Translations under genes and position numbers: made by a program
Shown here: positions 1,651 through 57,667 of the stretch, in pieces
Numbering within the stretch: the first letter of the stretch is position 1
How the letters are laid out: every line of letters starts with the position of its first letter
Notes under the pieces: generated by a model
Told to the model about the DNA's origin: nothing
Databases searched by the model: none
What the model saw: the letters and a program-made list of their open reading frames with translations, nothing else
Assembly (NCBI GenBank): GCA_964450605.1
Contig: CAYVEK010000002.1
Coordinates: forward strand, 87,681 to 151,680
Source of the DNA: an uncultured Candidatus Saccharibacteria bacterium
Lineage (GTDB): Bacteria > Patescibacteriota > Minisyncoccia > Phycocordibacterales > CAIZLB01
Direction: 5' to 3'
DNA: 64,000 bases

Positions 1651-2274
1651 TTATTTAACATTATTTGAAGCGTCATATTTTAGCCAATATGTCTTTATAA
1701 CCATATTTATATTATATACAGGATCAGGATCGTTACCAGTTGGAGCATTAAAGTCTATAGAATCTATATCCATAATTCTCTTTGAGAACTCAATACGTCT
1801 CAAAAACTCCATAAAGTCTCCATATGTAAGACTTACAGAAAATGAAAGCGTTGCAACTCCGAGTTTAGAAGATTCTACTGACGCATCAGTTTGTACACCT
1901 GTTGATTGTACAATTTTCGGACTCTCAATAGATAGTTTTTTAACAGAACCTTCTGCTGATTTATATTGAGCAATTGTTCCCCTATCTGACACAACTGATT
2001 GCAATAAATTATCGAAATCAATAATCAATTTTACATTTTCGACGTTATCAGGAAGCATGGTTTTCATTTTTGCCCTATCTGCTTCTGATATACTGTTCTG
2101 TGCCTTGAGCAAGCTATCAATACGTGCATCGAGCTTTTTAGCATTATGTAGAGCTGTTTCGTATCTTTGAACCTCTACCTGTCGATCTTTAAGAGCTGCC
2201 AACTTATCAGCAGTAAAAAAGAAATATAGGAGTCCTGCTGCTATGAGAAGTATGATTGATAAAATCGTTTTCAT
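1651..2274 (-). CDS. pilO: PilO-like type IV pilus assembly protein
   Basis: 207 aa with an N-terminal TM helix followed by a coiled-coil region. It occupies the position after pilN in the operon. Confidence 0.55.
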   Translation of the reverse strand: MKTILSIILLIAAGLLYFFFTADKLAALKDRQVEVQRYETALHNAKKLDARIDSLLKAQNSISEADRAKMKTMLPDNVENVKLIIDFDNLLQSVVSDRGTIAQYKSAEGSVKKLSIESPKIVQSTGVQTDASVESSKLGVATLSFSVSLTYGDFMEFLRRIEFSKRIMDIDSIDFNAPTGNDPDPVYNINMVIKTYWLKYDASNNVK

Positions 2275-2282
2275 AATTTTGA

Positions 2283-2951
2283 CTATTGTTGTGTATTATT
2301 TGTCTTAGTTTCAGCTGTTGGTGCTGGACGAATAAGTGATGAGAAGTTTACAGCATTTTCGACAACTGTTGTATTTATATTAAACACGGCCAAATCCTGA
2401 CCTCTTGCCTTACTGAAATCACTAATACTTGTGTTTTTAAATGTTTTCTGTGCTACAACTTCTGAGAACTGTTTATCCTGTACAACTATAGATTCATATC
2501 CAACTCCCTGAGCTTTTAAACCTAAAGAAAATGTACCATCAGGCTTTCTTTTAAGAGAAAATCCTGTAAGAGAGACTCTGTCCAAAGTATTTCTTCCTAC
2601 CTCTGCAAACAATGGACGCACAGCAACATGGTTATCAAGAAGAGTTTTTAATATTTCCAATCTGTCATTTACTGCTTTTAAATCTTCTATGGTTTGAGCA
2701 TTGCTTCTTTCTTGGTACTTTGCCAAAGCTTTTTCGGCAGTAGTTTTATTTGAAACAGAAAGCTTATCGAGTGAAAATACTACCCCTGCAGCAACCAAAC
2801 TGCATATAAAAACAAAGAAAGAAATGAGAGTAAATAAACTTCCTCCACTAAATATAGAGCTACTTCTTTTTTGTATATGACCTTTGTCATCTACAACATT
2901 ATCAAGTGATGCTCTTGGTATAAATGATGTTGTTTGAAATCTTGTTTCCAT
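2283..2951 (-). CDS. pilN: PilN-like fimbrial assembly protein
   Basis: 222 aa with a single TM helix after a short cytoplasmic N-terminus. It sits immediately downstream of pilM. Confidence 0.55.
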   Translation of the reverse strand: METRFQTTSFIPRASLDNVVDDKGHIQKRSSSIFSGGSLFTLISFFVFICSLVAAGVVFSLDKLSVSNKTTAEKALAKYQERSNAQTIEDLKAVNDRLEILKTLLDNHVAVRPLFAEVGRNTLDRVSLTGFSLKRKPDGTFSLGLKAQGVGYESIVVQDKQFSEVVAQKTFKNTSISDFSKARGQDLAVFNINTTVVENAVNFSSLIRPAPTAETKTNNTQQ

Positions 2952-2975
2952 AATCTATGTTTAATTATATCAAAC

Positions 2976-4097
2976 TCAACCTTGCAATGCACGAAGTGCA
3001 AGGCCGATCGCAGCAGCAAAGGCTGTTCCAGATGCTAATAATGATTCTTGCAGAAATACAGGTGTCTCAAGTTTGGCAAAAGGTGCAGCTAATGAAACCT
3101 CACAGGCAAATGTTTTTTTGGCTATATCCATAAAACCGTATAAATTTGCCCCACCACCTGTTAACAGAATCTTCTGTACTGTTTTTCCAAACCTTTTTTG
3201 AAATTGGTTTATCATTGTACTCACTTCGCTGATGATATATTCTTGATGAATACTCATGAGTTCAATTATTTTATCTTGATCTGTTACATTTCCTTTACCA
3301 AGACTTCGTTTTAAATGTTCAGCTTGATCAAAAGTAACTCCAAGACCTTTAGATATAGAAAAAGTGATATCTTGTCCTCCTCTTGTAAGAATATGCGATG
3401 ATACGAGTATACCGTTGTCGACTATGTATGACTTTGTAGATGAGGCACCTAGATCAATAATCATGACTGGTGCATTTTCACCAGAAAGACACGCACGGGC
3501 CGTAGCAAATGCCTCTACTTCGAAAAAACTAGTCTGAAGAGCTGTTTCTTGAACTATGGTTGTATAGTTATTTAGAACTTGATTGTGTATAGCAACGAGC
3601 AAGACTTGTATCTTTTTAGACTTCTCTTCTTGTTGTTTTTTAAAGTCACTGTCAGACTCAACAAACTCCAAGCTTGTATCTCGAGGTGTTGGAATAACAA
3701 ACCAATCCATAGTCACCTCACTTATAGGAACAGGTATGTATTTTCGAGCTTCAAGAGGTATAACCGTTGCAAGTTCTGATTCAGCAACCGTAGGTATCTC
3801 AATAACACTTACCAAACTTAACTTGAGTGGTATAGCCATACCACCTTTCATAGTTGTTATTTCTGCCTCTTTGATAAGATCTTTTATAACATTGCAAATC
3901 TCAGAAGTTGTCATGTTCACAACTTGTCCAGTGGCAAGTTTACTGTATGGACCGAGACCTATCTCTCCATACGTTTCAAGTACAGCTTTTCCTTTTTTCT
4001 TTTTTACCTGAACTATTTTAAGCGAAGAAGATCCAATGTCTATACCAATGACACTGGTTTCTGGTGCTGAAAAAATATTTTTAGTAAAAAAAGACAT
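2976..4097 (-). CDS. pilM: Type IV pilus assembly protein PilM (actin-like ATPase fold)
   Basis: 373 aa. The N-terminal motif VIGIDIGSSSLKIVQV and the later EARKYIPVPISEV are typical of PilM. Confidence 0.8.
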   Translation of the reverse strand: MSFFTKNIFSAPETSVIGIDIGSSSLKIVQVKKKKGKAVLETYGEIGLGPYSKLATGQVVNMTTSEICNVIKDLIKEAEITTMKGGMAIPLKLSLVSVIEIPTVAESELATVIPLEARKYIPVPISEVTMDWFVIPTPRDTSLEFVESDSDFKKQQEEKSKKIQVLLVAIHNQVLNNYTTIVQETALQTSFFEVEAFATARACLSGENAPVMIIDLGASSTKSYIVDNGILVSSHILTRGGQDITFSISKGLGVTFDQAEHLKRSLGKGNVTDQDKIIELMSIHQEYIISEVSTMINQFQKRFGKTVQKILLTGGGANLYGFMDIAKKTFACEVSLAAPFAKLETPVFLQESLLASGTAFAAAIGLALRALQG

Positions 4098-17258: not shown

Positions 17259-20252
17259 TTATTGATTTATCAGCTTTCTGGTCTTTGGACCAAAATACCC
17301 TGAAGCAGGTTTTATGCTATGTGCTTTTTGATACTCAATCAAGGCATCTTTTGTTAGCTTTCCAAAATAATTAGTACTTTTATCTTGGCCCAATATTTTT
17401 GCTTTAGGTCCACTATTTTCCTTAATTAAAAATTGTTGAAGATCCTTAACGTCTGATCCGACAGAGCCAACCTTTAAATCTCGAACAAAAACTTTTGTAT
17501 TTATTTTTTTAAAAGGTGCACCGTTATTATTTGTTTTTTCTTCGGCAAATAATTGAGGCCATTTTTTCTTCAACTGCTCTGCTTCTGTTTTTTTGCCCAT
17601 TTTATACAGATATTCAACTTGTTGAGCTATACTACTTCCACCCGCACCAGGTCCCACCTGAGCACTCGCGCCAGCAGACAAAGTCTGACCAAAAAGAGAG
17701 AATATAGAGAAGTGTGGAGCGGTACACGTTATAGTATTTGTACTAGTATTTACAGAACAATCGTTGAGTGCTGACCATTCACCATTTGCATAGTGATACA
17801 AACGAAGAGTCGCCTCATCCAAACCTGCAATATCTGCATCTGAATATGTATACGTTATAGTAACAGGCAAAGCAAAAGAATCGAGAATAACATTTGAATT
17901 TATAATAGCCTTAACGTCAAAAACTATATCTCCAACTTTCACGGTTGTACTTGTAGGTTTACCAATAAGTCCAATAACAGGATTTCCAGGTAAAGATTGG
18001 ATCTGTATAATCACATTTGATGATGTCGAGGTGAAGTTTGCCGGAGTAGTAATCATAAACGTTGCTCCACCCTCTGTAAGTTGTGTTGTTGTTGTAGCAC
18101 TTACAGTTACATCTGTTGAAGTTGCTGATGTTTGAACAACTGATGCTTCACAACCTATTGTTTTAAATGTATCGTCAGATGACGTTGCTGTATTTGTATA
18201 CCCATCACGAGATACAATTTTATAGTAATACGTTGAGCAAGGAACTAGATTTGTTAGAGCTATAGAATGAGAAGTAACTCTGGGTGAGGTGTCTGTTTCC
18301 GCTGTACTGCTACTAAATTTAACTACTCCATAGTATACACGACTTGAAGCATTTTCATTCGTACTCCAAGTTATAGACGCTGATGTTGAGGAAGTACTTG
18401 TTGCAGAAACAGATGTTATGACAGGTGCTGTAGTGTCACCCATGGTAAAGTTCCAAGAAGTACTCGCATTTACACCTGCAAAGTACGCATGTGACCCATC
18501 TCTAAAAGCTGTACTTGGAATCATTACATAGTAGCCAACTCCTTCTTGAAAATCATTTACAGGATTAACAACTATAGTGTTTGTACCACTTCCCGTTACC
18601 GTTGAGCTTGCAACATTTATTGTCTCAAACACCGTATTGTCAGCTGTTTTGTAAATCGTAATATCACTTGTACTTGCATATACAGTCGTACTAAACAACA
18701 TCGTTAGATTTGTTGATGTTGCAACGCCGGTCGAGTTGTCTGCTGGAGTTAGAGACGAGATACTTGGTGCATTTGTTGTGCTAATTGATACATTTTTAGC
18801 TATAACAGTTGGCAAGGCTCCAAGAGCACCGTACTCAACAACATATCCAGGCAGTGTTGTTCCTGTACAAGGAAGATCGTTCCATTTTCCAGATCCACCT
18901 GATAAGAATTGACCACAATCTTCATTTGAACCCGCATCATTTGGTTCACCAGTTCCCCAGTTTGCGTAATTACCACCAAAAGTAGATCCTCCACTTGCAC
19001 CACTCCAAAACTGTGTACCTGTCTCAGGCCCTGTCGCCCACTTCCAAGCACCTTCGACAGCAGAATCAGAAGCGCCCATCCAACCGGCATTCGATAAACG
19101 AGCTGCGACGAAATCATTTTCTTGTTGTGAAGTAATGGTTGTTAGGTACCCAGTAGCACCATATTTTGTAAGTGAAGCTGCTGCGGCTTGTGCCCCTTGC
19201 CATGTAAGTGTACTTGATATGTATTCATATAGATGGCCGTTATCTGCAAAAAATACTTCACCTGAAGGTACAAGAGAAACTTCAAGAGTGTCTGACCCTG
19301 TACTTGCTCGAGTATATGTAAGTGTTGAAAGAGCGTTATTAATATCCGTAACCGTTCCGCTAAAATACAATGTTGAACCAGTTGTTCCGCCTGTAAACGT
19401 AAGACCTGTTGTATTTGACATTGCCAATGTTCCACTTGTAACTCGCAACTTCACAGGTGTTGTTGATGCTCCATTTCCGCTTATTTGTACATCAGTTATA
19501 GGCATTGCCACATTTGCAGTACCTGTGACTGTATCTGCACCTACAATAGAAAAGTTTGCAGGAGGTGTGGCAGAATATGTTTGTACTCGAGTAGAGTGTA
19601 CAAAATGAACACCACTGTTATACCACGTTGATAAACCAGAAGATCCACTTCCTTGCAAGGTTGCAGAACTATCCGTTGTATTAAAAGTACCAACAAGACT
19701 ATTGTCAGCAAGATTTCTCACAATGACAGATATAACTGTTGCATTTGTACTTGTTGCAGAAAACTCAATACTATACCCAATAGAATTGTTAAGAGAAAGT
19801 GCCGTTGTTCCAAGTGAGGTTGTAACTCCTCCAACTATTTTATATACAAATATTCCACCACTTCCGATATGTGCAAGATAATGATCATTTGTCCCTGATT
19901 GATATCGCAAAACAAGTCCTAAAAACTGACCAAAGTTTTCTCCCGCAGGAAGAGTTGCTATGATACGCTGGTCCTGTTTATTTTCTGAACTTGGTCGTAA
20001 CAAAAACTTTGTCAAATAATCTGAACTTGCATACGACGATCCTTGCAGTTGATTGTTCGATATATTCCACATACCTCCTGCCGTATCTATCCACCCATTA
20101 CCGGCGCCCGATGTTGAGCCTGGAGTAGAAGACGTTGCAGTATCTGCTCGAGTAAATGAATCATCGACAACTGGATACCATGTCGTTGCGCTAACTGATA
20201 CCGACAATAATGATACTGAAAAAATAAATAAAAATTTTGAAACTTGTTTCAT
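17259..20252 (-). CDS. Large secreted multidomain surface protein: C-type lectin-like domain, Ig-like (Big) and FN3-like domains, C-terminal peptidoglycan-binding domain
   Basis: 997 aa with a signal peptide. The lectin-like region is WQGAQAAAASL...QQENDFVA...EGAWKWATG...ANWGTGEPNDAGSNEDCGQF...GKWNDLPCT. The FN3-like region is SITWSTNENASSRVYYG...CSTYYYKIVSRDGYTN. The C-terminal PG_binding_1-like region is LKVGSVGSDVKDLQQFL...LIEYQKAH. Confidence 0.75.
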   Translation of the reverse strand: MKQVSKFLFIFSVSLLSVSVSATTWYPVVDDSFTRADTATSSTPGSTSGAGNGWIDTAGGMWNISNNQLQGSSYASSDYLTKFLLRPSSENKQDQRIIATLPAGENFGQFLGLVLRYQSGTNDHYLAHIGSGGIFVYKIVGGVTTSLGTTALSLNNSIGYSIEFSATSTNATVISVIVRNLADNSLVGTFNTTDSSATLQGSGSSGLSTWYNSGVHFVHSTRVQTYSATPPANFSIVGADTVTGTANVAMPITDVQISGNGASTTPVKLRVTSGTLAMSNTTGLTFTGGTTGSTLYFSGTVTDINNALSTLTYTRASTGSDTLEVSLVPSGEVFFADNGHLYEYISSTLTWQGAQAAAASLTKYGATGYLTTITSQQENDFVAARLSNAGWMGASDSAVEGAWKWATGPETGTQFWSGASGGSTFGGNYANWGTGEPNDAGSNEDCGQFLSGGSGKWNDLPCTGTTLPGYVVEYGALGALPTVIAKNVSISTTNAPSISSLTPADNSTGVATSTNLTMLFSTTVYASTSDITIYKTADNTVFETINVASSTVTGSGTNTIVVNPVNDFQEGVGYYVMIPSTAFRDGSHAYFAGVNASTSWNFTMGDTTAPVITSVSATSTSSTSASITWSTNENASSRVYYGVVKFSSSTAETDTSPRVTSHSIALTNLVPCSTYYYKIVSRDGYTNTATSSDDTFKTIGCEASVVQTSATSTDVTVSATTTTQLTEGGATFMITTPANFTSTSSNVIIQIQSLPGNPVIGLIGKPTSTTVKVGDIVFDVKAIINSNVILDSFALPVTITYTYSDADIAGLDEATLRLYHYANGEWSALNDCSVNTSTNTITCTAPHFSIFSLFGQTLSAGASAQVGPGAGGSSIAQQVEYLYKMGKKTEAEQLKKKWPQLFAEEKTNNNGAPFKKINTKVFVRDLKVGSVGSDVKDLQQFLIKENSGPKAKILGQDKSTNYFGKLTKDALIEYQKAHSIKPASGYFGPKTRKLINQ

Positions 20253-22648: not shown

Positions 22649-23122
22649 TTATTTATGTTGTAATGTTTGAACAACAATACGATGTCTATATTTGGCATGT
22701 CTAACAGACTCATCTAAAAATCTAGTGATTCGAACATCACGATTGCCGTCAGAGATAATACGAACATCTGCCACAAAAAATTCATTATTTGCTTTAAAAA
22801 GAAATCTAAAACATGTCCACTCTTCCATGCTTAAGATATAGTCTTTCGCATTATGTATGATAAAACTTTTTATCTGCGGAGTTGTGAGAACTAAATGGTC
22901 TATGTTTTGATCAATACTTTCAAAAATATTTTTATACTCCGCATCCTCTGTTTGTTCATACACATCTACCGTAATATCAGGAGTTGGAGACTCAGGTTTA
23001 TCGCACCCCCAATTTTTAAAATCAGGACTAATATAGTTAAAAATATCTTGGGCAGAAGCGAGGATTTCTGTACCGTCAGTAGAGCCAATCGTTACAGATG
23101 TGTCTAGCTTATTACAAATCAT
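22649..23122 (-). CDS. Orphan hypothetical protein (157 aa); first of three small genes each preceded by the conserved GTTGGAC...GTTAGAAC element
   Basis: ATG lies directly adjacent to repeat copy A. No known domain. Confidence 0.3.
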   Translation of the reverse strand: MICNKLDTSVTIGSTDGTEILASAQDIFNYISPDFKNWGCDKPESPTPDITVDVYEQTEDAEYKNIFESIDQNIDHLVLTTPQIKSFIIHNAKDYILSMEEWTCFRFLFKANNEFFVADVRIISDGNRDVRITRFLDESVRHAKYRHRIVVQTLQHK

Positions 23123-23123
23123 T

Positions 23124-23150
23124 GTTGGACGGATTGATACAAGTTAGAAC
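23124..23150. repeat. att-like conserved element, copy A (GTTGGACGGATTGATACAAGTTAGAAC)
   Basis: Three copies occur at 23124, 23514 and 23901, spaced 390 and 387 bp apart. Each sits just upstream of a minus-strand small gene. Confidence 0.8.
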
Positions 23151-23154
23151 CGTT

Positions 23155-23505
23155 TTAATTAAAATACAAGAACATTCCCATCACCAAAATCAGCTGAATT
23201 CCCACAGTAAACAGTAATCTTTTAAATCCTGTAGACTGAACCAATGAAGCGTGTTGCAAAACACTCACACCGATAGGATCAATCTGGTTTCCTAAATCAG
23301 TAGGCTTTGTTGATGGATCATAAAGATATACTGCCAGCGACAATGTGTACACAAGAATTGCCTGAAGTAATCCGCTAATAATGGTTTGATTTTCCTGATA
23401 TTTGAAAAATACTGTTGATATTAGTGAAAACACTATAGCAGTAATGAATAAAATTGTGAGCGAAACTTTTTTGGATCTATAATACATACATAAATAATAC
23501 CACAA
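23155..23505 (-). CDS. Orphan small membrane protein (3-4 TM helices); annotated start is TTG, and an internal ATG at 23487 is more likely the true start
   Basis: Hydrophobic helices; no known domain. Confidence 0.3.
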   Translation of the reverse strand: MWYYLCMYYRSKKVSLTILFITAIVFSLISTVFFKYQENQTIISGLLQAILVYTLSLAVYLYDPSTKPTDLGNQIDPIGVSVLQHASLVQSTGFKRLLFTVGIQLILVMGMFLYFN

Positions 23506-23513
23506 AACCTCTC

Positions 23514-23540
23514 GTTGGACCGATTACGTGAAGTTAGAAC
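23514..23540. repeat. att-like conserved element, copy B (GTTGGACCGATTACGTGAAGTTAGAAC)
   Basis: Direct repeat of copy A/C. Confidence 0.8.
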
Positions 23541-23561
23541 TGCTTTGATAAAATCAAGCCT

Positions 23562-23861
23562 TTAATTGCCTGAAAAACAGATATACTCATGAGTATTAAT
23601 TGTTAATATAAAATCTTGTATTTGAGAAGAAACACTTGCTAATTCTTCAGAGAACTTGAACGTCTTCAACTCGGATATCAATTGAGGAACTTGTAGTGTA
23701 TTGAAAATTGTATCTCCATAAGGATCAATTCCCCAGAGAGTTTTGAAAGTTTTTTCCTGATCCCTGTCATGTATTTCAGCAAGAAGACGACCGAAATCTA
23801 GGTTTGAATCGGTTATTATTTTCCCATGTTCGTCTTGTAAGAATATTCCTATTGGTTGCAT
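23562..23861 (-). CDS. Orphan small cytosolic protein (99 aa)
   Basis: No known domain. A TGTGAT-N3-ATCACA palindrome lies between repeat C and its ATG. Confidence 0.3.
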   Translation of the reverse strand: MQPIGIFLQDEHGKIITDSNLDFGRLLAEIHDRDQEKTFKTLWGIDPYGDTIFNTLQVPQLISELKTFKFSEELASVSSQIQDFILTINTHEYICFSGN

Positions 23862-23882
23862 ATTGTGATCATATCACACAAT

Positions 23883-23927
23883 TTGTTAACAAAATCACTT
23901 GTTGGACGGATTACGTGAAGTTAGAAC
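23883..23927. repeat. att-like conserved element, copy C, fused to a 22-mer (TTGTTAACAAAATCACTTGTTG) that is identical to the sequence abutting the tRNA-Gln 3' end at 28004-28025
   Basis: Exact 22-nt identity seen in the sequence. Confidence 0.85.
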
Positions 23928-23993
23928 CTCTTTATATCATACTTTGGTGGGTAAATATGCAGTGATGAGGACATGTGAAAAAGTCTAATACCA

Positions 23994-24022
23994 TTGACAT
24001 TTGTATCTATGGATTGTATTAT
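23994..24022 (+). promoter_or_regulatory. Sigma-70-like promoter TTGACA-17-TATTAT upstream of the radical SAM gene
   Basis: Consensus hexamers with 17-bp spacing. An AT-rich promoter abuts a GC-rich ORF. Confidence 0.5.
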
Positions 24023-24058
24023 TGCAGGCAGAAACCAAACCCTCAAACTCCCGCACAA

Positions 24059-25917
24059 TGAACAAAATAATCGCTCCCCTTCTCGTCATCTGTATGATGG
24101 CCTTGAACCTCACCACCAACACATCTTGGGAGGTTAATCTCTCACCAGACTCCGTCTGCAAAATGATCTACAACCACACGGACGTAGACAAACCAATCAC
24201 CCTCAAAGCTCGTTCTGTTGAAGTCGAGATGTACGTAGAGTACGGATGGGGTTGGAGGACAGTTAACGTGCTTGGTGAACCCAAGACCGAAATATCCTTC
24301 AAACCGGGCCCTGCATACATCGTTCCGATCTGTGATATCAGAGTGCTTTCCAATAAGAAACGTCATACCGACTTCGCCTTGCGAGTCTGCGCCGTGGCCG
24401 CTCCGTACTGGATATGCAATAAGAATCCAAATCGTCGCCTCAGCCTCAACAGTCGAACGCCATTCTCGTTGCAGAACGCTCTCCGATGTGTCGCTGAAGC
24501 AGCTCAAAACGAAGAAGGTCCACTCAATGCAAATTGGACTGATCCCGAACTCGTTCACGAATCAATGATGCTCTTCGATGATTACGAAGAGAACGCTGCC
24601 AGCTTTGCAGACCGCCTCCGGCTCATTCAGCCAAACGTCCTGTACATCGGATCAATGACCCTGTCTTTCCCCGGGGCTGTCGAACTTGCCCGCACAGCAA
24701 AGCAAATGTTTGGAGACGGGATTCTCGTAGTGCTTGGCGGCCGACATGTGAACGAAACGTTTTACACGGAGGCAAATCAAATCAAGCATCACAAAGGATC
24801 ACCGCTCCTACTTATGCAGCAAGGAAAGATCGACCAGGTCTTCGACTTGGTCGTCTCAGGCGATGGAGAGCATATATCATTAAAGATCGCCGAGATTGTC
24901 CAACGCGTCGCGACGGACAATCTAATGGTGCGAAACTTTTTTGATCACTCGCTCGAACTTTCCGAGGCTCCAGGAATCTGGCAAGCCGGATGGATCACCG
25001 CTCGGAACGAGATCGAAACGGTGCGTAGTTTAAAACCGCAAGACCGCAGCAGTTTACCAATCCCGGCAGAGGTCTTTGGTATCACCTCGCGCTTCCCTAT
25101 CTTTGGCACGGATTACACCGCGCACGTCTACAGCGATTCAAGTCGAGGCTGCGTGCGAGACTGCAGCTTCTGCAGCGAACGTCGATCAGTGGCCGGAGGT
25201 ATGCAAAACCCTGCGGCCAGTGCTGATCGATTGTTTAGACAGCTTCTTACAGTTCAAGAAATCGGCAGGATCAACGAGTGCTCGGTCAGTGCCTTCGTGG
25301 AGGATTCAATTCTCCTCGCCGGCAGTCCGCAGTACTTATCACGTCTTGCCGATCTTATGGAGAAATCCAAGTTCAACATGAGGTTCGGCGGTCAGTTCAC
25401 CGTAGCTGACCTAACAAACCCCCTCGTGCAACAACAGATTCAAAGACTACAGCAATATGGGTTGTACTATATCTACACAGGTATGGAAACAATCAACCCT
25501 GAAGCTGCGGCAGCCATGAGCAAAAACCGTAAGAAGAATACCCCGTGGTTAACACAAAACACCGAGGCTATAGACTTCGTGAGCAGGATCGGGCTAAAGT
25601 TCGGAGTGTCGGTTCTCTTCGGTATCGGCGAAAGCCAACTCGAGAGACTCCTACACCTGGACACACTCGCAGAGTGGCAGAGAGAATATCAAAACCCCTG
25701 CGTAGTCAGCCTGAATTGGGCGACCGAACACCCACTACTCAACCAGTCGTCACACGACTTTGTTGAGTGGGGCACCAACAGAGACGATCCTCGTCTTAGT
25801 TTGATGCAAGAGGTGTTCGGGGAATCATCCGCAAGGTATTGTTTCCACCCCCTACCCAACACAGAAGAACTCAGTATAATCGCGGAAAAGTTCAGAAACC
25901 TCAACAACCGTACGTAA
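24059..25917 (+). CDS. B12-binding-domain radical SAM enzyme (class B-like); GC-rich gene. The ORF-track start at 24001 is a TTG inside the promoter, so the likely start is ATG 24059 (MNKIIAPLLV...)
   Basis: CxxxCxxC motif in GCVRDCSFCSE. An upstream Rossmann-like B12-binding-type segment (ILVVLGGRHV) is present. About 50% GC by eye versus roughly 36% background. The N-terminal ~150 aa are unassigned and include a hydrophobic leader. Confidence 0.65.
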
Positions 25918-46318: not shown

Positions 46319-48337
46319 TTATTGAATCTTTGGATTTACTGTTATTTTAAAGTTTTGATATAAAAAATATTTACCATAATCACCGCCTTCATGAATATTG
46401 ATTTTAAAATAACCGGTGTACACTTTAGGTGTTGTCCCATCACTATTTAGATATGAATCATTTAAATACCTATTAATAGTCGCTGTTCCTCGTGCACCAC
46501 CGCTCGATGTGCCCAGAGAACCATATGTAGGCAACCCTTCACCATAGCCATATACCGAAAATCCAAAAGTTTTATTTGTATCACTTGATACTATTTTAAT
46601 AGTAAAATCTTTATTACCCTCACCATCAGTCATTACTAGATCAAGAGTACACTGGTCAAGTGTATATGTTACTGCTCCTACTAACACACTTTGAGGACAG
46701 TCTGCAAAATTTGATGGATTTAGAATTGTAGGCTCAGAAATTTGGGTTACCACAGGAGGTGAAACAACTGATGATGGAACGCTGATCCGTGCCGTTGCAG
46801 GAATAACGTATGTAGATGTTGGCGACAACGTACCACTACTTATTTCACTGACACCGTAGAATGAACTTATACCCGCATCATCAATAAATCTAAGTCCCGT
46901 AGGTCCATATACTTGAAATTTAATATTGTAAGAAGTGTCAGTTAACTTGGCGGCAAAAACATCTATGTTTAGATTTTTTCGACTATTTTTTGGAACACTA
47001 AAGCCTAGACTGGCCAATTGAATATAATACACTCCCTCATATTTAGTAAATGATGAAGTATTAACAGGAATTGTTGCTAATACGACATTTCCATCTCTAA
47101 CAACAAAAGATTTTATTACTTCTGCAGGATTAAGAACTTCTCCTTTTAAATTTGTTAAAGTAGTTTGCATATTTACTCGAGCAAGTTGTACATTTCCACC
47201 CACAGCTTCCACTGAGATAGTATATGCTCTGAATGAATCATCTTGACTTGTAATATTTGTACTTACAGGAACCGTAGGAGTTGCTGTAGAAGTAGGATTG
47301 GTTGTTGATCCAGGGACTATCTGACTGTTTATTAACGCACGTGTTATTGGCCCAACATATCCATCACCAGGCTGAATATTATTTGCTAACTGATAACCTA
47401 TAACCGCTTTTTTTGTCTCAAAATCAAATGAACCTGTAGGCGCTATATTTAACCAACCTTTAAGTGCCAGAAATCTTTGTAACTTAAGAACCTCGCTACC
47501 TGTCATGCCTATTTCAAGGTTTGTATTGATATATGGAGACTGATCAATGGCAACAACTGTAGTTGCTGGCGCTGAAACACTAATAATTCCAGAACTTACA
47601 GTTCTACCATATCCACCTTTTATAGTAGGTACAATTTGTTCGTCATATAGCTCTATATTATATCTTCCTGCTGGAACCGTGTTAAACACTAATGCATTTT
47701 GCACTTTGCAACCAACTTTTGTTAGATCTACACGTGCAACACCTGCAGCAACATCAAAATATCCGAGATCACAGTAAAGTTTTCCTTGTGAATTAAAAGC
47801 TGTGTCAACAAGTATTGCGTGAAGATTACCTTTTATATTGTATATATGATTCCAACGAATTTCATACACTTTACCAAGCTCCCATGTTTCATCAGATTTC
47901 TGAGTGATTAGTTGCACAAATGGACCTGCCACATATTCTCTCAGATAGTCTTTATTATTAGAACCAGAAGTCTGGTCCGTTGATGGTGTTGAAATATTAT
48001 TACATGAAATATTTTTAATTTTCAGACGTGTCGATGGTCCAACATATCCTGTTGGGGATATCTGATTAGCAGATTGAAAGCTTTTTACAGCCCTTACAGT
48101 TGCGAGACCAAAAAAACCACTGGGATTTGTATTTAAATACTTATTTTCTTGTAGAAAATCCTGAAGGACAGAAACCTCACCATTTGTGAGTGAGTCTACA
48201 GATCGGTAGCGAAGATTATTTTTAATATCTAAACAAGAACTAGTTCCTTCAGGATCGATATCTGTATCTTGTGCAAAAACCGAAACCTGTATACTGCAAC
48301 TAAAAATAAGTACTGCTAAAAAAAATAGTTTATTCAT
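46319..48337 (-). CDS. Large secreted protein with two peptidoglycan-binding (PG_binding_1-like) domains and beta-rich repeats
   Basis: Signal peptide; the PGB-like segments are GEVSVLQDFLQENKYL...VKSFQSANQI and MTGSEVLKLQRFLALKGW...VIGYQLANNI. Confidence 0.55.
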   Translation of the reverse strand: MNKLFFLAVLIFSCSIQVSVFAQDTDIDPEGTSSCLDIKNNLRYRSVDSLTNGEVSVLQDFLQENKYLNTNPSGFFGLATVRAVKSFQSANQISPTGYVGPSTRLKIKNISCNNISTPSTDQTSGSNNKDYLREYVAGPFVQLITQKSDETWELGKVYEIRWNHIYNIKGNLHAILVDTAFNSQGKLYCDLGYFDVAAGVARVDLTKVGCKVQNALVFNTVPAGRYNIELYDEQIVPTIKGGYGRTVSSGIISVSAPATTVVAIDQSPYINTNLEIGMTGSEVLKLQRFLALKGWLNIAPTGSFDFETKKAVIGYQLANNIQPGDGYVGPITRALINSQIVPGSTTNPTSTATPTVPVSTNITSQDDSFRAYTISVEAVGGNVQLARVNMQTTLTNLKGEVLNPAEVIKSFVVRDGNVVLATIPVNTSSFTKYEGVYYIQLASLGFSVPKNSRKNLNIDVFAAKLTDTSYNIKFQVYGPTGLRFIDDAGISSFYGVSEISSGTLSPTSTYVIPATARISVPSSVVSPPVVTQISEPTILNPSNFADCPQSVLVGAVTYTLDQCTLDLVMTDGEGNKDFTIKIVSSDTNKTFGFSVYGYGEGLPTYGSLGTSSGGARGTATINRYLNDSYLNSDGTTPKVYTGYFKINIHEGGDYGKYFLYQNFKITVNPKIQ

Positions 48338-48446: not shown

Positions 48447-49607
48447 ATGAAAAAACTCAGCCTCAATATCCTCTACCTCTTTATCGGCCTATCTCTTTTA
48501 TCTATCATCACTAAAACCATCGATAAAAAACTAAGCACTTCAAACAAATCACAGACCGCAACCACAACCACAGATCTTGCCGAACAGTCTAAAAAAGATC
48601 CTATACAGGAACAGCTTGATCAGATGTCGATCGAAGAAAAGATAGGCTCTCTACTTATACTCGGATTTCGAGGGCCTGTGATAAATGAACATATTCAAAC
48701 ACTGATAACTAAACATCATGTTGGTGGAGTAAACCTACTTAAGTGGAATATCGAATCGGCCGATCAAATGAAAAAACTTTCCGCTGATTTGCAAAATCTA
48801 TATACAAAAAATCATAACAACTTACCTTTCATCGTATCCGCCGATCAAGAAGGTGGAACTGTTGTTAGATTTAAATTTTTAAATGAAAAAACCGCACAGC
48901 CTGACATGAAGACTGTTGGACAAGTTATCGAAATAACAAAACGTCGTGCAAAAGAACTGAAATCACTCGGAGTAAATATGAATTTTGCACCTGTTGCTGA
49001 CTATATAACAAATACAAAAAGTTTTCTATATAACCGAACTTTTGCAACAACAACTGAAGGCACTATAACTCTCGCAAAAACAGCGGCTGAAGTATATATG
49101 GCACAAGGTGTTATGCCAGTGTTTAAACATTTTCCTGGATATGGAAATAGTACTATAGATCCACATAAAGCGATGACGGTATTTGATGGAACGAGAGAAA
49201 TGTTTAATCAAAACATAGAAGTATTTAAAAACATTTTACAAAATGAAAAAGATATACCTGTAATGACTGCTCATATACAAGTCCCTTGGGTATCGAACTT
49301 ACCCGCAACAAAAGAGCCCTACTTTATGACCGACATGTTACGAAATGATTTTTCATATCAAGGTGTAGTCATAACCGACGATCTAGACATGGCATCAGTT
49401 GGAGCTGATCAGGGTAAAAATGCAGTTGATGCTATAGTTGCAGGAGCTGATATGATTATCAGTACTCCAAATGATACGAACCATTTTGTAATTATCGAAG
49501 CTCTGAAAAAAGCAGTAGATGAAGGAAAAATATCTCAAAAAAGACTTGATGAAGCGGCATATAGAGTGCTCAAGTTACGAAATAAGATGGCGGAAATACA
49601 AGGGTGA
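48447..49607 (+). CDS. nagZ: Glycoside hydrolase family 3 beta-N-acetylhexosaminidase (NagZ-like), membrane-anchored or secreted
   Basis: SADQEGGTVVRF and KHFPGYGNSTIDPH motifs. Confidence 0.75.
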   Translation: MKKLSLNILYLFIGLSLLSIITKTIDKKLSTSNKSQTATTTTDLAEQSKKDPIQEQLDQMSIEEKIGSLLILGFRGPVINEHIQTLITKHHVGGVNLLKWNIESADQMKKLSADLQNLYTKNHNNLPFIVSADQEGGTVVRFKFLNEKTAQPDMKTVGQVIEITKRRAKELKSLGVNMNFAPVADYITNTKSFLYNRTFATTTEGTITLAKTAAEVYMAQGVMPVFKHFPGYGNSTIDPHKAMTVFDGTREMFNQNIEVFKNILQNEKDIPVMTAHIQVPWVSNLPATKEPYFMTDMLRNDFSYQGVVITDDLDMASVGADQGKNAVDAIVAGADMIISTPNDTNHFVIIEALKKAVDEGKISQKRLDEAAYRVLKLRNKMAEIQG

Positions 49608-54385: not shown

Positions 54386-57106
54386 CTATTTTGCAATGAC
54401 TCCCCCGAGCACAAAGAGCAGGTATGCATAGTCAGCTCTGGTTGAGGCATATCTAGCCTTTAGGTTTGGATTATTTGAGTAGCGATCTATGTTTTTGATA
54501 GATCTTTTTATCTTCTCAATAAGTAGGGTTAGTTGTTTCTTTTGTTCATCAATAGTTCTTTTTTCTAGCTGATCGAGATATTTTATATATCTTGTTTTTA
54601 GATAAAAACCTGTGGTAGATGATGCGAGTCTTTGTTTTGTAATCTGTAGCTTTTCTTCGAATGTCTGCGTGGTCGTGGTAGCTTGTGATATCTCTATGGA
54701 ACCGTTTTTTGTTATATCTATAACACTTGTTGGAGTTATATACTCCTCTATATGCAAATCTGGTATAGATAGCACCGCATGATTATTTTGCATTGTGATG
54801 ATTGCGGGCATATATAGCGGAATATGCTCATATGTTTGAACTTGTATATTTCCTGTTGTTGGAGAGTTTGTTATATGAGCAACAGTTGTTGTTGATATGG
54901 CTCTACTTTGTATCTGCACTGATATATGTTTCGAAGAATTATCATTATCGTTCAGTTCAATATATTCTAAACCTTTATCAAAAGTTTTAAGCCCTACCTC
55001 ACCTTTTGACTCTATAAACGAGCTCGATATGTTTTTGTATGTTATAGGCTTTCCTTTCGTTGGTAAAATGCGCAGCTCAATAGGTTCAGCAAGAGGTTCA
55101 AGATCTTCTATAATAAGCCTACTGTATGTTTCTGCTTTTATATCTAAACCACTAGATGCAGTAGGGATATTATCAGAAAGTATATTATATATGTGTTGTC
55201 GAATACTCCCTTCATTCATCATATCGGCATGGGTATATCCAGTATCACTTAGATCAACTTCTGTTGTTATACCTGTTCTACCTCCACCCCGCTCAACAAC
55301 GCCATCTCCCATATTGTCATATAAAGGAATAGCTCTTTTAGTATGTTCTATAAAACCACTAACAGTTGGAACTCCGACACCGACTATTTGAAACTGTTGT
55401 ACACTTTGAATCTGTTCGCTTTGTATATATGAATGTATAGCCTTAGCTTTTTCAAATAAGTCGTGGTTAAAAACAGTAGAGCCTGTACGCAATACTTGGT
55501 TAAATTCTTCAACTGTATGTACAGCACTAGCACCAACTGCCATATCTCCAACATAATCAAAATATGTTTTTTGAGGAAGCAACATATACGCAGTTGGCAT
55601 ATTTTTTCCAAGATCTTTTGCCACAGAAGATTTTAGTATAAGCCCTCCCGCAACAGATTGTTCGTGGCCAAATAAAAGTGAAGTAACGGCTTGTGGTGTT
55701 CCATGCTCAGGTATGCCAACATATACAACCTTATCTATAGGTAGATATATATCGTGCTTCTTGGCATAGGCCAATAGATAACGAACGATCAATCCACCAT
55801 TACTGTGCGTAACCAAAGTCACCTTACCTGTTTTCGAATCTTTTGCTGATTGATATATCGAATCAAGTATATATCGAGTAAATGTTGACGTTCCATTTGA
55901 AAGCAATACTCCCTCTTGAAGCAGGGTGTCCGGCGCAAATCTCCAATCATATGGAACACTATCAAAATGACGTATGACTTTTTTAGAAACTAGGCTGTTC
56001 ATATCAGATACAAAGTCTTTGTATATAGACTTATCAAGCAATACTCCTCCAAAAATATTTGTTTTAGATAAAATATCTCTTGTATATATACCAGGTTCTA
56101 CAGCTTCTCCGTATTTATTCATAAAGAGTTTTTTAACATCAGCATTTCTGTTTGGTTCCCATAGCTGATTTTCATATCGACTATTTTTTTGATACAAACG
56201 ACTCCCCATGAGTCCTGGAAAAAATAAAACATTTGAACAGCATATAGTTAGATCTTTTCTGTTCTTTGTTTTCGACCATGGTGTGAAATGTATATTACCA
56301 AGCATCTTATTTAGAGGTTGAAGATCTGGCTGAGTTGAAGTGCCGAACCAGTTATCTGTTGCGTCTAAAGGTCGAAAAGATTCGGTGTCAACATCTTGTA
56401 CTATAGCGTACTGATTTTGATTAAAATCTGTTTTGTGTACAGATAGATTAGACGTCTGTACGAGTATGGCTTTATTATTTGCTTCAAAAAGTGAGTCTTG
56501 TATGTTTACGGTAGTGTTATCAAAACCATATATCCCCATATCAGTATTAATAAAATCAGAATCCCGTACATCAACAGTACTTGAGCTAAACAACTCTATA
56601 CCTTTACCTTTCCAATTTTTAAGTTTTGTATGTTTTATCATGAGCTTAGACTCTTTCCATACATTTATAAATCTGCCTGCTCCAAAACTGTCTGTGTATA
56701 AGTTGTCTATAGATATATCTGACTTGTTCCATCCGCTCATAAAAGAAGAATTGTTTTTTCCTATCAGTTTTACATGTTGTACATATGCACGATAGTTATC
56801 ACCTGATATAAGAGATGATGACATATTGTTTGCAGTGAAGACTGTTGGTTTTAGTTCTGTACCCAAAACAGATAACGAAGAGTTTTTAAAAAATATCGAT
56901 TTTTCAAACCTGACTTCGACACCAGAATCTATGCGCAAATCAGCATTTAAAAAGGTTGTCGAAGTTTTAACAACATATGGACTACCAGCCTTTGTCCATA
57001 CCACCGGTTTACTATATAAACCACCAACAATGGTTTCGGCATATATATGTTTTGGTGCACATGCACAAAGTATGCACATAATCGTGAAATATATTTTCAT
57101 GTACAC
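54386..57106 (-). CDS. Large secreted protein: N-terminal right-handed beta-helix-like repeats, a central alpha/beta-hydrolase of the LCAT/PGAP1-like lipase type, and a C-terminal coiled coil
   Basis: Signal peptide; LVTHSNGGLIVRYLL resembles the GHSMGG nucleophile elbow of LCAT/PGAP1-like lipases. Confidence 0.5.
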   Translation of the reverse strand: MYMKIYFTIMCILCACAPKHIYAETIVGGLYSKPVVWTKAGSPYVVKTSTTFLNADLRIDSGVEVRFEKSIFFKNSSLSVLGTELKPTVFTANNMSSSLISGDNYRAYVQHVKLIGKNNSSFMSGWNKSDISIDNLYTDSFGAGRFINVWKESKLMIKHTKLKNWKGKGIELFSSSTVDVRDSDFINTDMGIYGFDNTTVNIQDSLFEANNKAILVQTSNLSVHKTDFNQNQYAIVQDVDTESFRPLDATDNWFGTSTQPDLQPLNKMLGNIHFTPWSKTKNRKDLTICCSNVLFFPGLMGSRLYQKNSRYENQLWEPNRNADVKKLFMNKYGEAVEPGIYTRDILSKTNIFGGVLLDKSIYKDFVSDMNSLVSKKVIRHFDSVPYDWRFAPDTLLQEGVLLSNGTSTFTRYILDSIYQSAKDSKTGKVTLVTHSNGGLIVRYLLAYAKKHDIYLPIDKVVYVGIPEHGTPQAVTSLLFGHEQSVAGGLILKSSVAKDLGKNMPTAYMLLPQKTYFDYVGDMAVGASAVHTVEEFNQVLRTGSTVFNHDLFEKAKAIHSYIQSEQIQSVQQFQIVGVGVPTVSGFIEHTKRAIPLYDNMGDGVVERGGGRTGITTEVDLSDTGYTHADMMNEGSIRQHIYNILSDNIPTASSGLDIKAETYSRLIIEDLEPLAEPIELRILPTKGKPITYKNISSSFIESKGEVGLKTFDKGLEYIELNDNDNSSKHISVQIQSRAISTTTVAHITNSPTTGNIQVQTYEHIPLYMPAIITMQNNHAVLSIPDLHIEEYITPTSVIDITKNGSIEISQATTTTQTFEEKLQITKQRLASSTTGFYLKTRYIKYLDQLEKRTIDEQKKQLTLLIEKIKRSIKNIDRYSNNPNLKARYASTRADYAYLLFVLGGVIAK

Positions 57107-57183
57107 ATAGTTACATATGTGTATTCAAGAACATCCAAAGAAAACATAAAGACCACCCGAAGGTGGTCTTTATGTGTATGAGA

Positions 57184-57627
57184 TTATTCTGCTGACTCTT
57201 CTGCTTCTATATCTGCAGCATCTGCTTCAGCGATAGGAGTTCGAACCATCTGCATCTTAAGTCGTTTGTTGATCTCCTTAACAGCTTTGTCTCGGATGTA
57301 ATACAACTTAGCTCGTCGTACTTTTGATCGTTTTACGATCTCAACCTTATCAATGTTTGGAGAATATAGAGGGAAAATTCTTTCTACTCCGTATCCGTTT
57401 GAAGATTTTCGAACAGTGAATGTTGCTCCACTTTCTGTACCATGTTTTCGAGCGAGTACCATACCCTCAAAAACCTGAAGACGAGTTTTACCTTTTTCCT
57501 GGATCTTCTGGTGTACACGAACAGTGTCTCCTGATCGAATATCAAGAGCTTTTCGAGCGTTTTTATCTACTTGTGACAGTGTTATAGCCATAGGGACATT
57601 TTTAGCATATTTGAGGGTAATAATCAA
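57184..57627 (-). CDS. rplS: 50S ribosomal protein L19 (probable start at MAITLSQV)
   Basis: RSGDTVRVH...FEGMV is the L19 signature. Confidence 0.9.
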
Positions 57628-57667
57628 GGGGACGGGTCAAAAAGGGCTTGGCTGTATAGGCTAGGGT

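Follow-up and report, generated by a model that had tools for sequence, protein, structure and literature searches.

The gene described here lies on the minus strand at 17259..20252 of a 64-kb stretch of DNA (the window, analysed over its whole length) from a bacterium of the candidate phyla radiation (CPR), and encodes a 997-residue protein that we predict to be a secreted, modular lectin. The open reading frame (ORF) coincides exactly with the protein of about 1000 residues proposed in an earlier reading of this DNA (the original prediction), and a protein identical to it (P0001) is present in NCBI and Logan assemblies. At its centre is a C-type lectin domain (CTLD) in which the Ca2+- and sugar-binding motifs of animal lectins are intact and invariant across a large family, and we lean towards reading the protein as a Ca2+-dependent lectin that is tethered to the wall and serves to attach the cell to a glycan surface. 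The gene is made up of the following features, for which model confidence is given as the predicted local distance difference test (pLDDT).

17259..20252, minus strand: whole gene, predicted 997-residue secreted modular lectin (ORF list; ATG start; stop codon 17259-17261)
20187..20252, minus strand: predicted signal peptide of Sec type, residues 1-22, MKQVSKFLFIFSVSLLSVSVSA, without a lipobox cysteine (hydropathy and sequence inspection)
19560..20186, minus strand: N-terminal extension, residues 23-231, a predicted concanavalin-A-like (ConA-like) beta-jelly-roll (predicted fold)
19248..19559, minus strand: D1, residues 232-335, a conserved beta module with one helix, always before the CTLD (pLDDT 87-97)
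18825..19247, minus strand: C-type lectin domain, residues 336-476, long form (Pfam, PDB sequence search, fold)
18939-18947 and 18876-18884, minus strand: EPN codons and WND codons, respectively, within the C-type lectin domain
18438..18824, minus strand: Big_5 bacterial Ig-like domain, residues 477-605, stalk (Pfam PF13205; all-beta, pLDDT >93)
18147..18437, minus strand: FN3-type domain, residues 606-702, stalk (Pur_ac_phosph_N match, Foldseek)
17679..18146, minus strand: D5, residues 703-858, a conserved beta-sandwich module, stalk (pLDDT 94-97)
17463..17678, minus strand: linker, residues 859-930, variable, K/E-rich, partly helical and of low confidence
17262..17462, minus strand: PG_binding_1 domain, residues 931-997, helical, putative non-covalent murein anchor (Pfam PF01471)

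The full-length AlphaFold2 (AF2) model, which was built from a family alignment of 120 members, has a mean pLDDT of 81 and exceeds 90 over residues 232-860 and 920-997. These members are the best 120 of the at least 428 clusters that a full-length homology search assigned to the family, and the alignment and domain counts given below cover those 120. A promoter-like site lies upstream of the gene at 20307-20279, the number of such sites being not above chance, and a terminator scan around the gene found none.

C-type lectin domain and its Ca2+ and sugar sites

The Pfam family Lectin_C (PF00059) matches residues 350-463 with 48 bits against a cut-off of 22.6, and a phmmer search of the PDB returned langerin as the best match (E=2.6e-10), together with the carbohydrate-recognition domains (CRDs) of CD23, mannose-binding protein (MBP), DC-SIGN, mincle and aggrecan; when the whole protein was searched against PDB sequences, animal CRDs were the only matches. 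In this AF2 model, residues 331-476 have pLDDT values of 84-97, with strands and helices in the canonical double-loop order, and a Foldseek comparison of the predicted CTLD with the PDB gave target-normalised TM scores (TMt) of 0.72-0.82 to the CTLDs of aggrecan, MBP, mincle and CEL-I. The original prediction of a canonical CTLD, which was to fall if profile searches gave Lectin_C no support, is borne out by these figures. The motifs it named are all literally present: the WIGL-type core of strand beta2 as WMGA at 391-394 (WMG 391-393, with W391 invariant and G393 at least 90% conserved), EPN at 436-438 inside GEPND, EDC at 444-446 and WND at 457-459. The DC-SIGN equivalent of the WIGL motif is WMGL (PMC7618208).

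To place the putative ligands, residues 331-476 were compared by BLASTP with the CRD of rat MBP-A (E=3e-12), for which we used a reference sequence that matches PDB chain 1kwt_A at 100%. The alignment sets D396, E400, D439 and D445 against D161, E165, D188 and D194 of MBP-A, the ligands of Ca2+ site 1, and E436, N438, E444, N458 and D459 against E185, N187, E193, N205 and D206, those of the sugar-binding Ca2+ site 2 (structures of Weis et al.; PMC7618208). P437, C446, W457 and C462 fall on P186, C195, W204 and C209, and about 16 residues (about 409-428) are inserted ahead of the EPN loop relative to MBP-A. W391, D396, E400, E436, P437, N438, E444, D445, C446, W457, N458, D459 and C462 are invariant in 120 of 120 family members; D439, of site 1, is absent from the conserved-column lists of the same alignment. 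An EPN motif goes with binding of mannose, glucose, GlcNAc and fucose, and exchanging it for QPD moves the preference to galactose. The Ca2+-dependent, EPN-type site that had been suggested thus stands as far as the ligands are concerned, every MBP-A ligand position being present, and the sugar class would follow by analogy from the motif, which gives mannose/fucose/glucose specificity through Ca2+ site II (PMC7618208).

The cysteines are a different matter. Where two cysteine pairs had been claimed, the CTLD holds C446 and C462 only, which are predicted to form one disulfide, corresponding to the C2-C3 pair in the long loop; the canonical C1-C4 (alpha1-beta5) pair is absent from the query, and no other conserved cysteine column was found in the CTLD among the 120 members. 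The definition of the fold asks for at least two conserved disulfides (PMC7618208), one more than the query has. A cysteine pattern at odds with the fold had been named as grounds for abandoning the CTLD assignment; the fold is predicted to form with the one disulfide. Profile match, PDB sequence search, predicted fold and ligand alignment therefore agree on what, on sequence and model, is a genuine long-form CTLD with its EPN/WND Ca2+ site intact.

In comparison with the CRDs of animal collectins and group II lectins (rat MBP-A, langerin, DC-SIGN and mincle), the domain is alike in the WIGL-type core, EPN, WND, the C2-C3 disulfide and both Ca2+ sites, with E values of 1e-10 to 1e-12 and the TMt range given above, at an identity of only 22-30%. 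It differs from them in lacking the C1-C4 disulfide and in the insertion before the EPN loop, and it has a bacterial stalk and a putative murein anchor instead of a collagen-like region, a coiled-coil neck or a transmembrane region: the CRD is flanked by the beta modules D1 and Big_5, and neither a coiled coil beside it nor a transmembrane segment apart from the signal peptide was predicted. Intimin and invasin are likewise bacterial surface proteins in which a CTLD-superfamily domain ends a row of Ig-like domains. Their CTLDs are compact, without the long loop or a Ca2+/sugar site, they bind Tir and integrins, and they are anchored by an outer-membrane beta-barrel (classification of Zelensky and Gready). 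The query, by contrast, has the long loop, both Ca2+ sites and a PG_binding_1 anchor, and gave no intimin-type Pfam match.

N-terminal head, stalk and anchor

Residues 4-22 form the only hydrophobic segment of the protein (Kyte-Doolittle 1.8), and they appear to belong to a Sec signal peptide without a lipobox, the call resting on hydropathy and inspection by eye, with a putative cleavage site after residue 22. Between it and D1, residues 23-231 matched no Pfam family and no PDB sequence, and a word-index homology search with them gave no match either. The latter is a limit of sensitivity and not a true absence, since exhaustive searching of 1.84 billion representatives with HMMER brought up 228 clusters (E<=1e-3). 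An AlphaFold2 model built from an alignment of 23 of the HMMER matches is all-beta, with a pLDDT of 96.3 and a pTM of 0.92, and the predicted fold is the jelly-roll beta-sandwich of the concanavalin A-like lectin/glucanase superfamily. Its nearest structural neighbours are CBM66, GH43 and GH16 modules and DUF1080 putative glycosyl hydrolases, and it resembles lectins, carbohydrate-binding modules (CBMs) and phage receptor-binding modules. With the receptor-binding domain of TM4 gp23, the CBM2 of the phage J-1 Dit protein and the CBM66 of B. subtilis levanase the likeness is one of fold only, at 10-17% identity and with no sequence-level family match. On the models, then, this protein has two heads with carbohydrate-binding-type folds.

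Most relatives align from residue 232 or so onwards, and residues 23-231 are common to only one other protein among the 120; the ConA-like head is an add-on specific to this lineage. Elsewhere, in proteins of 200-1900 residues, 126 of 150 matches that are close to full length have the start of the module at residue 60 or earlier, and some proteins join it straight to FN3 and PG_binding_1. It usually stands right after a signal-like N-terminus and is sometimes repeated (proteins P0121-P0269); the module family has no Pfam model and would merit a domain definition of its own. Aap of Staphylococcus epidermidis, a modular adhesin associated with a Gram-positive wall, also has an N-terminal L-type/ConA-like lectin head, and is attached covalently through LPXTG and sortase. 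In the query, the anchor is of the non-covalent PG_binding_1 type, a CTLD stands beside the jelly-roll, and there is no sequence similarity to Aap.

The stalk carries a Big_5 domain (PF13205, residues 493-603, 37.1 bits against a cut-off of 23.6) followed by an FN3-type domain, which was recognised through Pur_ac_phosph_N (residues 615-698, 31.6 bits, just above the cut-off of 30) and through the FN3 arrays that Foldseek matched; the generic fn3 model reached 18 bits against a cut-off of 25. Of the Ig and FN3 spacers originally proposed, the first is thus confirmed outright, and the second is suggested by the FN3-type model and the fold matches, though not by the generic model. D1 is present in 120 of 120 members at a mean identity to the query of 60%, and D5 in 119 of 120. 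For D1 there was no Pfam, PDB-sequence or intra-protein profile match by single-sequence, member-wise sub-alignment, profile and hhalign searches; for D5 there was no significant Pfam or PDB match by single-sequence, member-wise and profile searches or by hhalign against the other modules, and its only sub-threshold Pfam match was PGF_pre_PGF. For both modules, the fold-search output for the multi-domain model does not say which part of the model was matched. There are three cysteine pairs, one to a domain, those in the CTLD (C446/C462) and the FN3-type domain (C672/C701) being invariant and that in D5 (C832/C843) at least 90% conserved. Three conserved intradomain pairs, with the sole hydrophobic segment at the N-terminus, fit an extracytoplasmic protein.

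Beyond the stalk, the linker has pLDDT values below 50 at 862-873 and 905-918 and carries 12 K/R and 6 D/E in 60 residues. It leads to a PG_binding_1 domain (PF01471, residues 932-994), which scored 31.6 bits, or 35.8 bits with the C-terminal segment alone, against a cut-off of 23, with helices at 933-945, 949-956, 965-977 and 989-996 (pLDDT 81-96), and residues 888-997 also align with an endolysin family from PHROG (E 2e-4). The C-terminal module appears to be of the murein-binding type, peptidoglycan binding itself being predicted. In the Pfam check that the original prediction had proposed, Lectin_C, Big_5 and PG_binding_1 all lie above their cut-offs and fn3 below its own; the anchor domain it described is present, and its picture of a surface protein is supported by the signal-like N-terminus, the spacers and the C-terminal module. 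Its domain list overlooked the ConA-like module at 23-231, D1 and D5.

Family, conservation and genomic neighbourhood

Identity to the query across the family is highest in the CTLD (66%), followed by D1 (60%), the stalk domains (47-53%) and the anchor (37%), with the linker least conserved (18%, entropy 2.7). A similar gradient is seen against the syntenic orthologue P0003, with 88% for the CTLD, 68% for D1, 67% for Big_5, 66% for FN3, 59% for D5, 58% for the anchor and 43% for the linker. LeuRS is 84% identical in the same genome pair. With the CTLD as the most conserved part, these figures point to strong purifying selection on a working site. Such housekeeping-level conservation across CPR classes argues for a conserved glycan as the ligand, perhaps a sugar common in walls or matrices or even one of the cell's own; a host epitope that differs from strain to strain is unlikely. 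The strain-to-strain variability anticipated for an adhesin did not materialise, the CTLD being the most conserved part and its Ca2+/sugar residues, D439 apart, being invariant in 120 of 120 members, and the gene has 0 nucleotide differences across three assemblies, with 6 kb on each side also identical in two Logan assemblies from different sequencing runs.

PF00059 is present in all of the 120 best relatives, nearly all of which share the same architecture at about 780-800 residues, and the few source names they carry are 'peptidoglycan-binding protein', 'Ig-like domain-containing protein' and 'lectin-like protein' (Patescibacteria, Paceibacterota, Pacebacteria). A scan of GTDB species genomes yielded 74 loci, almost all in metagenome-assembled genomes (MAGs) of Patescibacteria, with titles that name Paceibacterota, Paceibacteria, Minisyncoccia, Zambryskiibacteriota, Kaiserbacteria, Roizmanbacteria, Magasanikbacteria, Levyibacteriota, Saccharibacteria and the Patescibacteria group. 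The exceptions by title are one Chitinophagaceae locus and eight 'uncultured Gammaproteobacteria' loci, and the latter labels are doubtful because the same gene families flank several of these loci and CPR-titled ones. The eight (L011, L013, L014, L016, L029, L032, L035 and L036) include one on a 1.61-Mb chromosome; these members match the query only as far as residues ~855-892, and so have no PG_binding_1 match there, and relatives of the P0043 type carry LysM. The rarity of bacterial CTLDs, a premise of the original prediction, does not hold within the CPR, given a family of at least 428 clusters. Its episymbiont setting is reasonable, the organism being a Patescibacterium of Parcubacteria/Paceibacteria type: the LeuRS in the window is closest to Patescibacteria/Parcubacteria sequences, with 70% identity to the nearest named one.

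The core from D1 through the CTLD, Big_5 and FN3 to D5 is constant in 119 of the 120. PG_binding_1 occurs once in 83 of them and twice in 7, was not detected in 28, and some relatives list LysM or carboxypeptidase-regulatory domains in precomputed Pfam annotation. That the anchor is doubled, absent or of LysM type in relatives while the core stays constant we count in favour of its role as an anchor. Many CPR genomes encode proteins that match the stalk and anchor only (query residues 498-979 or 606-979) and have other N-terminal parts, so that stalk and anchor are apparently reused, and the arrangement, judged from sequence, is that of a display scaffold with exchangeable heads and anchors. 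Such stalk-and-anchor proteins were seen at loci L050, L053-L056, L059, L061-L063, L065 and L067-L075, and some of them share a MAG with a complete CTLD copy, as L050 does with L037. Two family genes stand in tandem at L030 and L055, and at L005, L042, L066, L076 and L078 two or three shorter ORFs stand in place of one gene, which could reflect assembly frameshifts or real pseudogenisation.

We found no paper on this family or on any canonical Lectin_C protein of CPR bacteria, and the CLec fold and Patescibacteria were linked in the literature only through diversity-generating retroelements (DGRs). Each domain type is known, and public annotation already names relatives 'lectin-like' or 'peptidoglycan-binding', so the surprise is moderate.

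The window comes from the chromosome of a CPR bacterium whose envelope is of the murein type. Besides the lectin gene it encodes FtsA, FtsZ, FtsX, PilM/PilO-like proteins, a VirD4/TraG-like ATPase, a GH3 enzyme and a second PG_binding_1 protein; of these, FtsX, FtsA/FtsZ, the GH3 enzyme and the other PG_binding_1 protein fit a murein wall. On a related 618-kb contig, an orthologue without the ConA-like head lies in broadly syntenic surroundings (KilA-N and cyclophilin, then the lectin, then SpoIIAA-like, cytochrome b5 and Na+/H+ exchanger genes). No conserved neighbour emerged when ORFs were clustered over 76 related loci, where the commonest neighbour family occurs in 11, and the adjacency to cyclophilin is limited to the closest relatives.

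A tblastn search of the window for paralogues gave only a PG_binding_1 match, in the ORF at 46319..48337. This minus-strand gene (46319-48337) encodes a 672-residue protein whose only Pfam matches are two PG_binding_1 domains at its N-terminus (86.7 bits) and which is, by its sequence, another predicted murein-associated envelope protein; divergently adjacent to it lies a GH3 (NagZ-like) glycosidase gene (48447-49607, plus strand). At the start of the window, beside a transketolase gene, PilM (134 bits) and a weak PilO-like gene (1651-4097, minus strand) belong to a cluster for the assembly of type IV pili, which are the other attachment device known from CPR bacteria. At 54386-60538 (minus strand), a 906-residue protein that combines a right-handed beta-helix with an LCAT/DUF676-type lipase adjoins a 956-residue VirD4/TraG/HerA-like ATPase, and the pair recalls a type-IV-secretion-like system reported to be essential in a cultured Saccharibacterium (PMC10633639).

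Two further observations concern the region upstream of the gene. A 45-nt motif occurs three times at 23112-23933 (64-100% identity, spacing 390 and 387 nt), at or just upstream of the starts of the consecutive minus-strand genes 22649..23122, 23155..23505 and 23562..23861. Neither Pfam nor PHROG matched any of the three, and the motif is probably a promoter or 5' element repeated along an array of small genes. The gene at 24001-25917 (plus strand), which encodes a 638-residue radical-SAM protein, lies on the strand opposite to its neighbours, and its 2-kb bin has 50% G+C against 33-41% elsewhere in the window; it was possibly acquired horizontally.

Proposed role and rival explanations

From the domain identities, the intact motifs, their invariance across the family, the predicted folds and the taxonomic and genomic context, we infer export, orientation, Ca2+ dependence, sugar class and a role in adhesion as follows. 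The signal peptide would direct the protein to Sec export, and the C-terminal PG_binding_1 domain would hold it non-covalently in the cell's own murein. The three beta-sandwich modules of the stalk (Big_5, FN3 and D5), together with the flexible, charged linker, would then push the two heads outward beyond the wall. There, the CTLD would bind sugars with equatorial 3-/4-OH groups (of the mannose, glucose, GlcNAc or fucose type) through site 2 (E436, N438, E444, N458 and D459), Ca2+ site 1 (D396, E400, D439 and D445) would steady the loop, and the ConA-like head may add a second, probably different, glycan contact in this lineage. The likeliest use would be attachment to a glycan-coated surface, either a wall polysaccharide of a partner or host or a matrix polysaccharide, with a target conserved across lineages. 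Adhesion to a partner cell is plausible, and the partner may be a host.

There are precedents for glycan binding at the surface of such cells. Essential envelope proteins of cultured Saccharibacteria carry polysaccharide-binding domains (PMC10633639), and cultured Saccharibacteria also have lectin-like minor pilins, in a system in which host binding falls to about half when soluble mannose or glucose is present and for which the authors state that the specific lectins are still to be identified (PMC11623550). These are, like the query, CPR surface proteins with lectin-like folds and a proposed part in the recognition of host glycans (PMC11623550, PMC10633639). They are type IV pilus subunits or VCBS/dockerin/FN3 proteins, whereas the query is a predicted murein-tethered CTLD protein of a Parcubacteria-type lineage.

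Several points weigh against an attachment lectin of this kind. Its export depends on a signal call made by eye and hydropathy. The orientation could be reversed, with the PG_binding_1 or LysM module on a foreign wall, and the missing C1-C4 disulfide may give the domain a stability or behaviour different from those of animal CRDs. The ConA-like fold is shared by glycoside hydrolases and by proteins that are not lectins, and no conserved neighbour ties the gene to pili, secretion or host interaction. Finally, conservation of the CTLD over CPR classes that presumably have different hosts fits host-specific recognition poorly, and could equally mean a self or generic ligand.

The last of these points is where the best surviving alternative begins. 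The protein would organise the cell's own envelope, with the CTLD bound to the cell's own secondary cell-wall glycopolymer, or to a glycosylated S-layer or pilus, and murein cross-linked in this way to an outer glycan layer. This accords with a CTLD kept at the level of a housekeeping protein (88% against 84% for LeuRS between orthologues), with a site that does not vary over many CPR classes, which should have different hosts, and with a gene that sits syntenically among housekeeping-type genes and is nucleotide-identical in three assemblies. We nonetheless consider it unlikely: one stalk and anchor are seen with different heads (a ConA-like head gained here, no CTLD in some paralogues), a pattern more typical of outward-facing binders, no glycosylation or S-layer genes are conserved beside the gene, and PG_binding_1 is not detectable in 28 of the 120 relatives.

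A second alternative, still a live one though less probable again, is that the protein captures polysaccharide, environmental or from a host, for scavenging or matrix attachment, or is a released, bridging lectin whose PG_binding_1 or LysM end would sit on foreign (host) murein, with the lectin heads bound to something else. The closeness of the ConA-like head to CBM66, GH43, GH16 and DUF1080 proteins would suit such a role, as would an anchor that is non-covalent, exchangeable with LysM or absent, and the presence of the GH3 enzyme and the other PG_binding_1 protein in the window. By Pfam, however, the protein itself has no catalytic domain, neither a transporter nor a hydrolase is conserved beside the gene, and a soluble lectin would not need a rigid multi-domain stalk.

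It is very improbable that the CTLD is a scaffold for proteins or other non-sugar ligands, with EPN and WND kept for structure only. The absent C1-C4 disulfide and the insertion before the EPN loop could be read in this way, and many CTLDs do bind non-carbohydrate ligands; those that have lost sugar binding, however, typically lose the Ca2+ motifs as well (group V C-type lectins, PMC7618208), whereas the query retains the ligand positions of the two sites, each of them, with the exception of D439, invariant in 120 of 120 members.

An origin as the variable protein of a DGR, or as a phage or prophage receptor-binding protein, is effectively refuted: the literature ties the CLec fold and Patescibacteria together through DGRs only, a KilA-N phage-type regulator lies ~1.5 kb upstream and the ConA-like head resembles phage receptor-binding modules, but the domain matches Lectin_C (PF00059), its ligand-binding region is the most conserved and not the most variable part, the three assemblies show 0 nucleotide differences and the locus is syntenic in a related genome. 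As a DGR variable protein it was rejected on the lack of any direct repeat of at least 40 nt involving the gene, and hence of a template/variable repeat, in the 64-kb window and on its invariant binding residues; a scan of neighbouring genes and large ORFs of the window turned up no reverse transcriptase. DGR variable proteins (Mtd, TvpA and the CPR/DPANN targets) are likewise surface proteins with ligand-binding domains of the CLec superfamily, abundant in CPR genomes, with a hypervariable face, a template repeat and a reverse transcriptase in place of the invariant face seen here. A prophage or phage receptor-binding protein was rejected on the PHROG matches, which comprised an endolysin wall-binding part, the only match on the gene itself, and the KilA-N regulator, and on the BFVD matches, which were only generic FN3 arrays; PHROGs found no phage structural genes among the gene and its neighbours.

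An attachment lectin tethered to the wall would matter because the molecules that determine recognition of a host or surface have been established in only a few cultured Saccharibacteria and in essentially no Parcubacteria-type CPR. Here, a widespread single-gene family that faces outward by its architecture and carries an invariant, well-understood site makes the hypothesis directly testable with recombinant protein, and a labelled CTLD could show which cells or polymers of a community carry the ligand. A canonical two-Ca2+ CRD without one of the 'defining' disulfides also bears on how the CTLD fold is defined. A broader proposal, to which we give only a slim chance, is that the family is the general receptor by which Parcubacteria/Paceibacteria-type CPR bind the glycans of their partner cells, and possibly an old bacterial lineage of Ca2+-dependent CRDs and not a recent import from animals. 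If this were true, ultra-small bacteria would have had the 'animal-type' C-type lectin site since far back in their history, and the recombinant domain could be used as a probe for the hosts of Parcubacteria/Paceibacteria-type lineages.

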